A DNA stretch of 7,358 bases, from IMG/VR virus record IMGVR_UViG_2703718800_000016, positions 1 through 7,358 of that record; one strand, given 5' to 3'. Position numbers and translations under genes: made by a program. This DNA comes from a virus. Its lineage: Duplodnaviria > Heunggongvirae > Uroviricota > Caudoviricetes. Of this stretch, positions 1 to 7,076 are shown in pieces (position 1 is the stretch's first letter; each line of letters opens with the position of its first letter). Below the pieces are notes generated by a model. The model saw nothing but the letters and a program-made list of their open reading frames with translations, was not told where the DNA came from and searched no databases.

Positions 1-1242
1 ATGGCGAGAAAAACACACCCATTAACCACAGTGCAGATCAAAGCAGCCAGACCAGCGCAAAAGGAGTACACCCTGCAGGACGGCGGAGGGCTTTTTCTCC
101 TGGTCAAACCGTCTGGATCAAAACTCTGGAGATTTTCCTACTACCGACCATCGGACAAAAAAAGAATATTGCTGAGTTTTGGATCGCTTGAAGATGTTTC
201 CCTGGCTGATGCCAGAAAACGCCGTAGCGAGTACAGGACGTTAATCAGTGCCGGAACTGACCCGCAGGACCACGAGAGGCAAAAAAGAGAGACAGAGGCC
301 CGAAGACAAGGGAACACGTTCGAAAATGTGGCGGCGGCATGGTACCAGGTGAAAATCAGCCAGAATCTGGCCCCCAACACGATTAAAGACATCTGGCGTT
401 CGCTGGATAAATATGTATTCCCGTTCATCGGCAACACGCCAATAGATACCCTCACCGCCCGAAGGTTCGTTGAAGTGCTTACCCCCATCAAGGAGCGCGG
501 CAACCTGGAAACACTCAAGCGGGTTTTACAGCGCGTTAATGAGGTAATGGATTACGCCGCCAACAGTGGGCTGATTGATGCCAATCCGGCTATGAATGTG
601 CGTAAGGCGTTTCCCTCACCTGTAAAAAAACATATGCCAACAATCCGCCCCGAACAGCTGCCCGAGCTTATGCAGGCTTTATCAGTATCGGCAACAGAAC
701 GGCAGACCAGATTACTGATTGAATGGCAGTTACTGACCGTAACCCGTCCCGCCGAAGCGTCATCAACGCGGTGGGATGAAATCAACCTGGACGCGAAGCA
801 ATGGACGATACCTGCCGGACGCATGAAGATGCGCAGGGATCACGTTATCCCGCTTTCCGGTCAGGCTATGGCGGTGCTGGAGGCCATGAAACCAATCAGC
901 CACCACCGCAATTACGTTTTCCCAAGTCTGAAAGACCCACAGCAGCCGATGAACAGCCAGACAGCTAACGCAGCATTGCGGCGTATGGGATTCGCTGGCG
1001 TGCTGGTGTCTCATGGATTACGCGCCATATTCAGCACAGCAGCGAACGAGGAAGGATTCGAGCCGGACGTAATAGAGGCGGCACTTGCCCACGTCGACAC
1101 CAACGAAGTTAGACGGGCATACAACCGGAGCAACTACATAGAAAAACGCATCGTGCTGATGCGCTGGTGGGGCGAATTTGTCGAGGCTGCGGCGACGGGC
1201 GTAACCCTCGCCAGTGGTAAAAGGGGTATCCGAGCCGTGTAG
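1..1242 (+). CDS. int: Tyrosine recombinase / site-specific integrase, P4 (IntA)-like
   Basis: 413-aa ORF. The N-terminus (MARKTHPLTTVQIKAARPAQKEYTLQDGGGLFLLVKPSGSKLWRFSYYRP) is typical of the P4-integrase N-terminal domain. The C-terminus carries the catalytic signature HGLR ... LAH ... RRAYNRSNY (His-x-x-Arg, His, Tyr nucleophile). Recognition is from memory, not a search. Confidence 0.95.
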   Translation: MARKTHPLTTVQIKAARPAQKEYTLQDGGGLFLLVKPSGSKLWRFSYYRPSDKKRILLSFGSLEDVSLADARKRRSEYRTLISAGTDPQDHERQKRETEARRQGNTFENVAAAWYQVKISQNLAPNTIKDIWRSLDKYVFPFIGNTPIDTLTARRFVEVLTPIKERGNLETLKRVLQRVNEVMDYAANSGLIDANPAMNVRKAFPSPVKKHMPTIRPEQLPELMQALSVSATERQTRLLIEWQLLTVTRPAEASSTRWDEINLDAKQWTIPAGRMKMRRDHVIPLSGQAMAVLEAMKPISHHRNYVFPSLKDPQQPMNSQTANAALRRMGFAGVLVSHGLRAIFSTAANEEGFEPDVIEAALAHVDTNEVRRAYNRSNYIEKRIVLMRWWGEFVEAAATGVTLASGKRGIRAV

Positions 1243-2885: not shown

Positions 2886-3171
2886 AAACCGCTTGCAAAA
2901 AATTATCACGGGGCTGTATGCTTCCCGCGTCACCCACATGGTGACCGGGTTTGACAGCCTGAATACTACAGCGGACAGCCGCTTACATTCCGATATGCGG
3001 TTTTTTTGTGTCCGTAAACCTACCCATACCCGCATTATGGCGGGGCGTAACGGGGGAGCCTTTGCGCTCGCTGGTTCCTGTAGTGCCAGTCTGTCAACCC
3101 TGTTACGTCTCGCCACCATGTTTGACAGCGTAGTAGCGAGACTCCTTAATTTCACTACAGGAGCCTTTCAC

Positions 3172-3790: not shown

Positions 3791-4090
3791 ATGAAACTTA
3801 AATATTCTGGCTTAACTGCCAGTGGCAACACTCACCCTAAATTTACGCGCGGTGATATTTACCGCGACCAGTACGGCGGCACGGTAATGATTAAGGGCGT
3901 GGCGGGACGGTGCGTAACTTACCGCCGTGAAGGTTACGAATATGATTGCGTGATGCCTGTTTATCAGTTCCGGCGTGATTTTTCTCTGGTACAGGCAGCG
4001 CCCCGCAGTAAACCAACCAGCAGGGAGAAAGCACGCGCCAATATTCAGGAAATAAGAAAGATGTTGAATGTATTCAGGGGTAAAAAATGA
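3791..4090 (+). CDS. Hypothetical small protein translationally coupled to the primase gene
   Basis: 99 aa (MKLKYSGLTASGNTHPKFTRGDIYRDQYGGTVMIKGVAGRCVTYRREGYEYDC...). GGAG lies 10 nt before the ATG. Its stop overlaps the primase start (ATGA at 4087-4090). GC content is normal, about 53% in a hand-counted 60-nt sample. By position it is analogous to the small genes preceding alpha in the P4 replication operon; that is inference only. Confidence 0.6.
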   Translation: MKLKYSGLTASGNTHPKFTRGDIYRDQYGGTVMIKGVAGRCVTYRREGYEYDCVMPVYQFRRDFSLVQAAPRSKPTSREKARANIQEIRKMLNVFRGKK

Positions 4091-5835
4091 AACTTGCACC
4101 GAACGTAAAAAAACAACCACGCGGAATAAAACACAAAGACACAGAGGTAATTATTTTCGCGGGTAGTGATGCGTGGGCACATGCAAAACAGTGGCAGGAG
4201 CAGGACGGCCCCGCATCCGGCGATAATGTGCCGCCTGTGTGGATTGGGCCAAATCAGCTTGCCGAACTTGATGCACTGAAAATTGTTCCTGATGGAAAAA
4301 AACGCGTAAGGCTGTACCAGGCCGGAGAACTGGATTTGGTGGAGACCAAAAAGATTGGTCAGAAGCTGGCGGCGGCAGATATTCAGGACGCAAATTTTTA
4401 CCCCGAAGGAATGCACGTCCAGAAGTGTGAAAACTGGCGGCGCTATCTGAATGCTGAGCGTGAAAATATTGCCGCAGGGCTTACCATGCCGGAGCAGAAA
4501 AATACGCAACTGGCACAAATGGCAGACAGTGAGCGCGCGCAGCTGCTTGCCGAGCGCTTTGATGGCGTTTGTGTGCATCCGGAAAGTGAAATCGTTCACG
4601 TATGGCGCGGCGGGGTATGGTGTCCGGTCAGCACAATGGAACTTAGCCGCGAAATGGTGGCGATCTATTCAGAGCACAGGGCCACTTTCAGCAAGCGCGT
4701 AATCAATAACGCCGTGGAAGCGTTAAAAGTTATTGCCGAACCAATGGGCGAGCCGTCCGGCGATTTGTTGCCGTTCGCCAATGGTGCGCTTGACCTGAAA
4801 ACGGGGGAATTTTCCCCGCACACGCCGGAGAACTGGATCACCACGCACAACGGCATTGAGTACACGCCACCAGCACCAGGGGAGAATATATGCGACAACG
4901 CGCCAAACTTTCATAAATGGCTTGAGCACGCAGCCGGAAAAGACCCGCGCAAGATGATGCGTATATGTGCCGCGCTGTACATGATTATGGCGAACCGGTA
5001 CGACTGGCAGATGTTTATTGAGGCCACCGGAGAGGGCGGTAGCGGTAAAAGTACATTCACGCACATAGCCAGCCTTCTGGCAGGGAAACAGAACACGGTA
5101 AGCGCTGAAATGACCTCACTTGATGATGCTGGTGGACGTGCGCAGGTTGTCGGGAGTCGTCTTATCGTCCTGGCTGACCAGCCGAAATATACAGGCGAAG
5201 GAACGGGCATCAAGAAAATCACGGGCGGCGACCCCGTGGAAATAAACCCGAAATATGAGAAGCGTTTTACGGCGGTAATCAGGGCGGTGGTGCTGGCTAC
5301 CAACAATAACCCGATGATATTCACCGAGCGGGCCGGAGGTGTGTCACGCCGTCGGGTGATTTTCCGGTTCGACAACATTGTAAGGGAGGACGAAAAAGAC
5401 AAGGATTTGCCGGAGAAGGTCGCGGCTGAAATCCCCGTAATTATCCGTCGCTTGCTGGCTAATTTTGCCGACCATGAAAAGGCACGGGCTTTATTACTGG
5501 AACAGCGCGACGGTGATGAAGCTCTGGCAATAAAGCAACAGACGGATCCGGTTATTGAGTTTTGCCAGTTCCTGAATTTTCTGGAGGAAGCACGCGGCCT
5601 GATGATGGGCGGCGGTGGCGATTCAGTGAAGTACACGACCAGAAACAGCCTTTACCGCGTCTATCTGGCGTTTATGGCATACGCAGGCAGGAGCAAACCG
5701 CTAAACGTGGCTGAGTTCAGCAAGGCCATGAAGCCAGCGGCAAAAGTTTACGGACATGAATATATTACGCGGAGAGTTAAGGGAGTAACGCAGACCAACG
5801 CAATTACAACTGATGATTGTGACGCGTTTTTATAA
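4087..5835 (+). CDS. Replication initiator: primase-associated SF3 helicase (P4-alpha / D5-like C-terminal NTPase; PICI Pri-Rep-like)
   Basis: 582 aa. Walker A GEGGSGKST and Walker B-like RLIVLADQP lie in the central region, matching the phage/plasmid primase P4-family C-terminal helicase domain. The classic P4 alpha primase motif EGYATA is absent, so the N-terminal domain is of uncertain type. Shine-Dalgarno GGGG 6 nt before the ATG. It is immediately followed by the iteron cluster. Confidence 0.9.
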   Translation: MKLAPNVKKQPRGIKHKDTEVIIFAGSDAWAHAKQWQEQDGPASGDNVPPVWIGPNQLAELDALKIVPDGKKRVRLYQAGELDLVETKKIGQKLAAADIQDANFYPEGMHVQKCENWRRYLNAERENIAAGLTMPEQKNTQLAQMADSERAQLLAERFDGVCVHPESEIVHVWRGGVWCPVSTMELSREMVAIYSEHRATFSKRVINNAVEALKVIAEPMGEPSGDLLPFANGALDLKTGEFSPHTPENWITTHNGIEYTPPAPGENICDNAPNFHKWLEHAAGKDPRKMMRICAALYMIMANRYDWQMFIEATGEGGSGKSTFTHIASLLAGKQNTVSAEMTSLDDAGGRAQVVGSRLIVLADQPKYTGEGTGIKKITGGDPVEINPKYEKRFTAVIRAVVLATNNNPMIFTERAGGVSRRRVIFRFDNIVREDEKDKDLPEKVAAEIPVIIRRLLANFADHEKARALLLEQRDGDEALAIKQQTDPVIEFCQFLNFLEEARGLMMGGGGDSVKYTTRNSLYRVYLAFMAYAGRSKPLNVAEFSKAMKPAAKVYGHEYITRRVKGVTQTNAITTDDCDAFL

Positions 5836-5849
5836 TTTTTTGTAAAAGC

Positions 5850-6073
5850 CCTCTACCCCATCTACCTGAATGAAATAAACGCATATTATTCAACATGATA
5901 AGTGGGTAGAGGGCTAGGTAGAAGGCTAATAAAACCTCTCTACCTCTTCTACCATGATTAAGATCGTTTGTGAGGGGCGGGTAGAGGATGGGTAGAGGGC
6001 CACGAAAGCCCTCTACCCATCTGAAAGCCGCGCCATTACTGACATGAAAGATGATTAGGTAGAGAGGTAGAGG
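5850..6073. repeat. Iteron cluster / putative origin of replication
   Basis: Eleven copies of the 8-mer GGTAGAGG or its complement CCTCTACC (core GGTAGA), arranged as adjacent pairs of alternating orientation at 5850, 5859, 5905, 5917, 5937, 5946, 5980, 5991, 6010, 6058 and 6066. They are separated by AT-rich spacers such as 5867-5904. Two longer units AAAGCCCTCTACCC-CATCT recur at 5845 and 6005. The cluster sits directly downstream of the primase/helicase stop. Confidence 0.7.
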
Positions 6074-6199
6074 AGGTGCACCACAACCTAAAACTTTTTA
6101 AACACGAGGGTAAAAATAAAAATGCACACATCAGGAAGATTTAACAAATCACTCAAAAAACGCAGAGACAGAACAGAACCGAAATATCGCGCGTTAGAC

Positions 6200-6401
6200 A
6201 TGACAGAGCACGCTTTAAAGGTGGCAATCAGAACGATAGACCGCCACGCGGGGGGAAGGATACGCGAAAGCACATCCCGAACTGATAAGCGCATTCATGA
6301 CCACGACGGCGGCAAATTTTGCCACGCTGACAGAACGGGAGATTGCCGAAGCGGAACAGGTAACAACCATCAACGTTAAAACCGGAGAGGTGGAATCATG
6401 A
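6200..6401 (+). pseudogene. Small protein gene apparently interrupted by a 1-nt frame change at a G6 homopolymer (6250-6255); may be an assembly/sequencing indel or a genuine frameshift
   Basis: The frame from ATG 6200 (MTEHALKVAIRTIDRHAGG...) runs into an arginine/glycine-rich, non-protein-like tail ending at 6379. The +1 frame from 6252 reads GEGYAKAHPELISAFMTTTAANFATLTEREIAEAEQVTTINVKTGEVES and ends with TGA overlapping the ssb ATG (ATGA at 6398-6401). Removing one G would give a continuous ~65-aa ORF coupled to ssb. The track ORF 6122..6379 is the upstream frame. Confidence 0.35.
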
Positions 6402-6808
6402 CAGCACAGATAGCAGCTTACGGGCGGCTGGTGGACGACCCGCAGGTAAAACAGACCAGCAAGGGCACACCAATGACGCTGGCACGTATGGCGGTATCGT
6501 TGCCATGTAGTCAGGCGCAGGATGGGCAGGCGACGTTATGGCTATCGGTCATCGCATTTGGTAAGCAGGCCGACTTCCTGGCTAAACATCAAAAAGGCGA
6601 CGTTGCCAGCGTATCCGGCACGATGCAGGTCAGCCAGTGGACCGGACAGAACGGGGAAACGCGGCAGGGTTATCAGGTTATTGCAGACAGCGTAATCAGT
6701 GCCCGTGCGGCACGTCCTGGCGGGAACAGACGCAAAACCACAGGCACACAGGGTAATCAGCCACCAGCGGGAGACGATGACCCCTACGGGGATAACATAC
6801 CGTTTTAA
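6398..6808 (+). CDS. ssb: Single-stranded DNA-binding protein (compact SSB-like)
   Basis: 136 aa. The OB-fold region aligns by eye to E. coli SSB ([26 protein letters not shown] vs [74 protein letters not shown] vs [49 protein letters not shown]). A short Gly/Pro linker leads to an acidic tip [11 protein letters not shown] (canonical SSB tip is DDDIPF). Shine-Dalgarno GGAGAGG 7 nt before the ATG. Confidence 0.85.
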   Translation: [136 protein letters not shown]

Positions 6809-6812
6809 GCAA

Positions 6813-6838
6813 CGAGTGACAGAAGCCTGAGCAATCCG
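6813..6838 (+). terminator. Possible rho-independent terminator after ssb
   Basis: Short stem AAGCC (6814-6818) / GGCTT (6828-6832) followed by a T-run (6832-6837). The stem is only about 5 bp with a 9-10 nt loop, so this is moderate at best. Confidence 0.4.
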
Positions 6839-6899
6839 GCTTTTTTACGGGTCCTCCTGGCGGGGTGGGCCTGAACACGGGGCGGAGGGGCGCGGAAAA

Positions 6900-7076
6900 A
6901 AGCGCATTTTTGTGATTTTATCGTCATCATCATCATGTGTGTAACCTGTTGTTTTTAATGTGGTTGATGCAAAAAAGATGATGATTGTGGTTAATTTTTG
7001 TTCGACATCTTTTAGCGTGACAGATTCTTTACAAAAAATCTGAGCTTGTTTTCTTCACCAGCGCGATGGGGGCACA
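6900..7076 (+). promoter_or_regulatory. AT-rich intergenic region with repeated TGTG-N-TT-N-AT motifs (putative regulated promoter for the downstream gene)
   Basis: TGTGATTTTA (6911), TGTGGTTGAT (6960) and TGTGGTTAAT (6986), with ATCATCATCAT and GATGATGAT runs. No clean sigma70 -35/-10 pair and no P2-type TGT-N12-ACA activator site was found by eye, so the promoter may be activator-dependent. GGGGG Shine-Dalgarno at 7068-7072. Confidence 0.25.

Follow-up and report, generated by a model that had tools for sequence, protein, structure and literature searches.

The array of short repeats at positions 5850–6073, together with its AT-rich flanks (approximately 5826–6121), is very probably a replication origin of the EcCICFT073 type that works as proposed for this origin. 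The stretch of DNA analysed here over its full length of 7,358 bp, in the following called the window, represents a PICI of E. coli, i.e., a phage satellite of the EcCICFT073 type, which is a described family. Within this island, we found an array that is conserved among relatives, that is orthologous to the one of EcCICFT073 and that follows a rep gene whose product carries a C-terminus homologous to the one of P4 alpha; repeats and Rep C-termini furthermore covary at the level of clades. These data support the view that the feature is an already described PICI origin, present as an allele close to the experimentally tested one, and the initial call as an origin was consequently correct, but not new. 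As a discovery it carries little weight: what it adds is the assignment of the window to the EcCICFT073-type satellites and the position of the origin therein.

Repeat array and AT-rich tracts downstream of pri-rep

The hexamer GGTAGA occurs 11 times in the window, compared with 1.56 expected copies, and every copy lies within 5850–6073; in shuffled windows the maximum was five, and 11 or more were reached in 0 of 200. For the 8-mer GGTAGAGG (reverse complement CCTCTACC) we counted six exact copies, where 0.07 would be expected, and five copies with a single mismatch at position 7 or 8 (Table 1). Across all 11 sites the invariant unit is RGGTAGA, and it is most likely this core, not the 8-mer, which is recognised. 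A first-pass annotation of the sequence had described eleven iterons of an 8-bp motif in alternating paired orientation: the 11 sites are real, whereas the 8-bp motif is exact in six of them only. The orientation was borne out as --++--++-++ with iteron 9 standing single, the start-to-start distance inside the pairs being 8–12 bp, and so was the position directly downstream of the helicase gene, as iteron 1 begins at 5850, 14 nt after the pri-rep stop codon (5833–5835). Its mention of AT-rich spacers, in turn, holds for the first long spacer, while the remaining ones reach 36–67% AT; strong AT-richness is thus a property of this first spacer only.

Table 1. Positions of the repeats, surrounding cis features and genes in the window.
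Feature	Position	Strand	Sequence or basis
integrase	1–1242		ORF scan, Pfam
pri-rep, 582-aa initiator/helicase	4087–5835	+	Pfam D5_N, DUF5906, Pox_D5; TIGR01613
putative winged-helix origin-binding domain (Rep 486–574)	5542–5808	+	1KA8 and Pox_D5 matches
AT-rich tract over rep stop codon, left flank of first iteron pair	5826–5847	.	30-mer 5827–5856 of low stability
iteron 1	5850–5857	-	GGTAGAGG
iteron 2	5859–5866	-	GGTAGATG, one mismatch
spacer between convergent iteron pairs, proposed DNA unwinding element	5867–5904	.	38 nt, 74% AT
iteron 3	5905–5912	+	GGTAGAGG
iteron 4	5917–5924	+	GGTAGAAG, one mismatch; site present in subtype A origins, subtype B without + core at this offset
iteron 5	5937–5944	-	GGTAGAGA, one mismatch
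iteron 6	5946–5953	-	GGTAGAAG, one mismatch
iteron 7	5980–5987	+	GGTAGAGG
iteron 8	5991–5998	+	GGTAGAGG
iteron 9	6010–6017	-	GGTAGAGG
candidate decayed partner of iteron 9	6019–6026	-	CATCTGAA on + strand; compare CATCTACC at 5859–5866
conserved non-iteron block inside third spacer	6021–6041	.	21 bp, CTGAAAGCCGCGCCATTACTG
iteron 10	6058–6065	+	GGTAGAGA, one mismatch
iteron 11	6066–6073	+	GGTAGAGG
distal AT-rich conserved block including ribosome-binding site of next ORF	6082–6121	+	conservation profile
conserved 85-aa ORF, first gene past the origin	6122–6379	+	also in EcCICFT073
island-encoded single-stranded DNA-binding protein	6398–6808	+	Pfam SSB, E 4e-17

The 30-mers 5827–5856 and 5873–5902, which flank the first iteron pair, belong to the least stable 0.7% of all 30-mers of the window, and a low duplex stability was also found for the 30-mer 6090–6119. 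Within the array neither a DnaA box nor an IHF consensus was detected, which fits a self-loading initiator. An Rfam scan of the whole window in E-value mode returned nothing in 5836–6121. The unpaired iteron 9 is followed by an octamer (CATCTGAA) which, from a reading of its letters, is probably a decayed partner site; it is included in an imperfect 27-nt inverted repeat, I1, with the arms 5974–6000 and 6008–6034.

The array takes up the space from rep to the operon-like set of genes that comes next, and plasmid iteron arrays often double as copy-control sites. Both points would also suit a mainly transcriptional operator or autoregulatory (handcuffing, copy-control) site for the 85-aa ORF, ssb and perC, in which initiation is secondary or absent, and so would the conservation of the blocks 6082–6121 and 6021–6041 independently of the iterons. 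However, neither a sigma-70-like promoter nor an intrinsic terminator was detected on either strand of 5600–6400, and the orthologous region was reported to be required for replication (PMC6092414). Gram-negative PICIs are moreover described to be transcribed in one direction (PMC6092414), so that read-through from rep would need no promoter at this place. Altogether, we consider a predominantly regulatory role of the array to be very unlikely.

Comparison with the origin of EcCICFT073, and the Pri-Rep initiator

In Gram-negative PICIs, the origin is located immediately 3' of rep and consists of an AT-rich region between two iteron sets (Fillol-Salom et al., 2018, ISME J, PMC6092414). For EcCICFT073, the pri-rep-ori segment was reported to keep a temperature-sensitive plasmid at the restrictive temperature (Fillol-Salom et al., 2018); the rep mutant gave 0 colonies and deletion of ori led to significantly fewer (PMC6092414). 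The window features the same arrangement, i.e., a position 3' of rep, 11 cores, and two minus-strand sites followed by a gap and two plus-strand sites, next to a gene for a helicase-type Rep with a C-terminal winged helix as predicted by homology (1KA8, 7OLA).

We compared the window with the sequence of EcCICFT073, the prototype of the Gram-negative PICIs, which was taken from CFT073 at the published coordinates. Its gap after rep likewise contains 11 GGTAGA cores, at offsets from the stop codon of 17, 26, 72, 94, 105, 114, 145, 156, 178, 224 and 233, and those of the window are found at 17, 26, 70, 82, 104, 113, 145, 156, 177, 223 and 231, so that 10 of the 11 window sites lie within 2 nt of an EcCICFT073 offset. 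In both islands, the array separates pri-rep, at whose 3' side it lies, from the 85-aa ORF, ssb and perC, and the AT-rich first spacer as well as the CTGAAAGCCGCGCCATTACTG block are common to both, while the C-terminal domains of the Rep proteins are nearly identical. Differences concern the bases after the core (YAG in EcCICFT073, mostly nGG in the window), the fourth site, which is on the minus strand at offset 94 in EcCICFT073 (--+---) and on the plus strand at offset 82 in the window (--++--), Rep residues 542–545 (NDFG versus AEFS) and the chromosomal location, with EcCICFT073 between ycfD and phoQ and the window's island beside an icd fragment. Since the GGTAGA offsets in the gap after rep match, the window array is, on these comparative grounds, the orthologue of the experimentally supported EcCICFT073 origin. 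The earlier reading as an iteron origin is therefore backed by position, by synteny with EcCICFT073, by 89% Rep identity and by the 11 GGTAGA copies in both, as far as sequence comparison reaches.

Pri-Rep matches the Pfam families D5_N (residues 151–280), DUF5906 with the P-loop region (314–415) and Pox_D5 (485–573) as well as the NCBIfam model of the P4-family "primase C-terminal" (TIGR01613), and residues 186–429 resemble PriRep5 of SaPI5 (E 1.8e-14), whose structure entry is 7OLA (PMC9371898). Residues 486–574 match the origin-binding domain of P4 alpha (1KA8; phmmer, E 5.5e-6). AlphaFold2 modelling of the C-terminal 128 amino acids without an alignment reached a pLDDT of 51.7; since this model is poor, the putative winged helix is assigned from sequence homology only, and a homologue search with the Rep C-terminus returned near-identical fragments only. 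For residues 1–150 (window 4087–4536) there was no match to a Pfam family and a primase domain is not recognisable, although the RefSeq name of the protein is "DNA primase family protein". The substitutions that separate this Rep from the EcCICFT073 Pri-Rep are found mostly in residues 1–150, with four in the last 100. As the N-terminal 150 residues are the most diverged part in this comparison, yet the first ~120 residues are the best-conserved stretch between the window Rep and the one of the RM13514 PICI, the alignments suggest that Rep is a mosaic protein.

The SaPI model features a self-loading Rep helicase that recognises iterons via a C-terminal winged helix (Qiao et al., 2022, NAR, PMC9371898), and SaPI origins comprise 6–12 iterons immediately downstream of rep, with an AT-rich region parting the opposite orientations (PMC9371898). 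Like the origins of SaPIbov1, SaPI1 and SaPI5, the window has short iterons 3' of rep that flank an AT-rich region, two or more per side and in opposed orientation, an SF3-type helicase Rep with a C-terminal DNA-binding domain, and no boxes for a host initiator. In contrast, the iteron sequences are unrelated, detectable homology is confined to the helicase core, and the AT-rich region, which is central in SaPIs, is off-centre in the window, preceded by two iterons and followed by nine.

By analogy with the work on EcCICFT073 and SaPIs, we infer Rep binding, melting and helicase loading for the window allele as follows. Upon induction of the island, Pri-Rep would bind RGGTAGA via its predicted C-terminal winged-helix domain, with the iterons of a pair being spaced by about one helical turn and opposed pairs facing each other across the spacers. 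The stretch 5867–5904, bracketed by convergent pairs, would be the likely melting site. In the manner of the SaPI Reps, Rep hexamers could then load onto the opened DNA with no help from a host loader and act as SF3-type helicases, and the island's own SSB, encoded downstream, may coat the unwound strands. This explanation has to be weighed against the off-centre position of the AT-rich region, the functional test having been done on EcCICFT073, in which the flanks are YAG instead of nGG, the assignment of the winged helix from sequence homology, the lack of a recognisable primase domain in the N-terminal part of Rep, and the conservation of a 21-bp block at 6021–6041 besides the iterons.

Covariation of iterons and Rep C-termini across relatives

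A scan of IMG/VR with the window Rep yielded 80 loci at 86–100% identity, and a Rep scan of genome contigs yielded three loci. The loci from IMG/VR, E. coli and Shigella comprise 63 distinct origins with 18 Rep C-terminal alleles, and nearly all of these origins contain 9–11 copies of GGTAGA. In alignments made within each subtype (see below), conservation was higher at the cores than outside them, with values of 0.972 and 0.882 for one subtype (Mann-Whitney, p 1e-6) and of 0.991 and 0.926 for the other (p 5e-9). GGTAGA is present in 85/85 loci of the window's Rep clade, and TGTTCA-type iterons are present in 81/81 loci of the RM13514 clade, 80 of them from IMG/VR.

The Rep of the RM13514 PICI is 47% identical to the one of the window, and the same gap contains GGTGAACA/TGTTCACC repeats at offsets of 14, 24; 68; 87, 99, 107; 129–163; 183; and 228, 236. 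Relatives in Serratia and Morganella, with Reps of 52–53% identity, carry the iterons TGTTCAC and TGTTCAT. In all these relatives, the layout is in register with the window, i.e., a pair, an AT-rich gap and inverted sites, at a Rep identity of 47–53%, but the iterons are TGTTCAC(C) or TGTTCAT of the P4 type and the C-terminal domain is P4-alpha-like and ends in a tail EDW(L/M)P, which the window Rep does not have. The gap after the first pair measures 36–40 nt with 73–89% AT in CFT073, RM13514, Serratia and Morganella, the sequences themselves being unrelated. Over the C-terminal 125 residues, the Reps of the TGTTCA group, to which P4 alpha belongs, share 45–48% identity with each other and only 31–36% with the GGTAGA group.

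If the C-terminal domain binds the repeats and the first gap melts, one would expect just such a layout in register and such a covariation. In this context, the relatives represent a natural experiment, in which homologous origins keep their layout while the iteron and the C-terminal domain of the initiator change together; this is of use for the engineering or typing of PICI replicons and for testing the cross-talk of co-resident satellites. The clade-level covariation likewise backs the idea, proposed before from the motif, of a distinct initiator specificity. Side observations extend this range of combinations: downstream of Pri-Rep, a large group of PICI-like loci of E. coli, comprising the RM13514 PICI (L008, 7600–7880) and the loci L090–L169, carries the exact P4 type I sequence TGTTCACC, in a site layout like that of the window and with a C-terminal domain that groups with P4 alpha. 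The PICI of E. coli 042 (L007, 5204–5403) shows the same gene neighbourhood, with a non-homologous RepA-family helicase and six AAGTGAG repeats in the gap that follows; given this non-homologous helicase and the different repeats, initiator and origin seem to have been swapped together, as one module.

The P4 record contains sixteen annotated "ori type 1 repeats", which are TGTTCACC or variants thereof with one mismatch. The P4 iteron given in the first-pass annotation is thus correct, as is its difference from the window motif (GGTAGAGG versus TGTTCACC). Likeness to P4 is found in the origin-binding domain of alpha (1KA8), which is homologous to the Rep C-terminus with 33% identity, in the 8-bp repeats in both orientations and in the crr site directly 3' of the initiator gene (crr 4291–4590, adjoining alpha at 4636–6969 on the minus strand). 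However, P4 needs two cis sites, ori and crr, whereas the window has one cluster, and alpha, with 777 aa, carries the annotation DNA primase, while no family is matched by residues 1–150 of the window Rep. With another iteron, a single site and no recognisable primase domain, the window origin is not of the P4 type.

The same resemblance raises the question if the array could be a crr-like cis enhancer of replication instead of the origin itself: in P4, crr lies directly 3' of alpha and has 8-bp iterons in both directions while the true ori is 4.5 kb away, and the Rep C-terminus is, as mentioned, homologous to the alpha origin-binding domain. However, no further cluster was found in the window or in 30 kb around the island (L001), where GGTAGA occurs outside the array as three isolated singletons only. 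In addition, a spacer of the AT-rich melting type is situated inside the array, and the rep gene of EcCICFT073 with the adjacent ori was reported to be enough for plasmid maintenance (PMC6092414). An enhancer function in place of an origin thus receives very little probability from us.

A further class of candidates are the classical iteron origins of plasmids. Those of pSC101, F, R6K and RK2 feature direct iterons of 17–22 bp in one orientation and with regular spacing, DnaA boxes and often IHF sites. We rejected this class for the window, the core of which measures 6–9 bp and occurs in both orientations, with no DnaA or IHF consensus.

Within the GGTAGA clade, two subtypes can be distinguished. 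Subtype A, to which the window belongs, has mostly RGGTAGA-nGG in the layout --++--++-++, and subtype B, represented by EcCICFT073, has RGGTAGA-YAG in the layout --+---++-++; the change in the bases that follow the core is a concerted one over 10–11 iterons (window 5850–6073 versus L002 7013–7235). Rep residues 542–545 read AEFS or ADFS with subtype A and NDFG with subtype B, a difference of three residues, and this pairing was observed in 79/80 loci where both are readable, the exception (L049), a recombinant, combining AEFS with a subtype B origin. The codons 542–545 and the origin are separated by less than 150 bp, so that linkage accounts for the pairing adequately and equally well, although the concerted change over all sites is notable. 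That the coupling of subtype and Rep is functional, forming fine-grained replication specificity groups of E. coli PICIs, with the 21-bp block as second cis element of the origin, is a tentative and rather unlikely proposal. If true, specificity groups of this kind might enable several islands to coexist in a cell and not to activate each other.

The 21-bp block CTGAAAGCCGCGCCATTACTG itself is at least 90% conserved over 65 distinct origins and was found in 81/85 loci of the GGTAGA clade, in both subtypes, and in 0/81 loci of the TGTTCA clade. At 6021–6041 we detected no promoter, Rfam family or conserved hairpin, and the block is not an iteron. Its conservation shows that selection in this region also acts on something besides the iterons. 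A hairpin TTACTGGC...GCCAGTAA in the third spacer of CFT073 was rejected, as it is conserved neither in the window nor in the family consensus.

The island and its neighbouring genes

Sequences matching the 601 bases around the array were found in 1329/5426 complete E. coli genomes, two of them with 100% identity. A query consisting of the rep end and the origin had up to five matching places per E. coli genome, and four in the strain with the 100% match, so that several related PICI origins are co-resident in one cell. BLAST of the origin against phages gave no match, and the origin is hence not common to a known helper phage. Against plasmids, one partial match was obtained, which represents a PICI-like element within a 32.5-kb circular record. 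In this record (CP088587.1), which is filed as a non-mobilizable plasmid, the element (L170, 13498–21614) carries the same pri-rep, a subtype B origin, ssb and perC in this order, next to the genes for a capsid, a prohead protease and a portal. This could point to a capsid-forming PICI or to an element that has been excised.

The window belongs, in strain S19-651, to a small island that adjoins an icd fragment. Its genes code for an integrase, a small protein with an HTH, Ash and Icd-like proteins, DUF4222 and a "DNA primase family protein", followed, after the gap with the array, by an 85-aa ORF, SSB and PerC. The gene order of the window follows EcCICFT073, with int, AlpA-like HTH, Icd-like, DUF4222, pri-rep, gap, 85-aa ORF, SSB and PerC. 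The HTH ORF (1739–1945) matches Phage_AlpA only weakly, with an E-value of 0.0028 that falls short of the cut-off, and shares 27% identity with AlpA of EcCICFT073; it may tentatively be regarded as an AlpA-type regulator. PICIs are marked by an integrase, an AlpA-type regulator, rightward unidirectional genes, a size of ~8–12 kb and the lack of a full phage set for morphogenesis and lysis; the integrase, this candidate regulator and the synteny with EcCICFT073 are in line with residence of the array in such an island. In the three RefSeq records examined, the origin is unannotated.

Partition sites, e.g., parC of plasmid R1, are also arrays of short repeats, and the array could in principle be a centromere-like partition or packaging site without a role in replication. 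Partition genes were, however, found neither among the ORFs scanned nor in the RefSeq annotation of the island, and the sequence of the repeats tracks the Rep clade. Moreover, the cos site of the EcCICFT073 type is lambda/phi80-like and unrelated to the array (PMC6092414, supplement). Partition or packaging is, in our view, extremely improbable, even less probable than an enhancer or operator function, and the array is preferably read as the origin.

Further observations concern the genes on both sides of the origin. The 85-aa ORF (6122–6379) has no family match; it is intact in the window, whereas RefSeq lists it as a frameshifted pseudogene in S19-651 (L001, 15423–15702). In E. coli JNEC-KY203 (L171), an IS1 is inserted inside the start of this ORF with the target duplication GGAAGATT, equivalent to 6134–6141 of the window, and the iteron array itself is intact. 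Upstream of pri-rep, Rfam identified the C4 antisense RNA (RF01695) at 3033–3120 on the plus strand with 72.3 bits, above the gathering score. An a1/b1 target element (RF03163) at 2916–2965 (+) reached 42.1 bits, just below gathering, and a match to isrK at 2929–3007 (+) was sub-threshold. The region 2916–3120 is an antisense immunity module of the P1/P7 type, located upstream of the Icd-like genes of the island.
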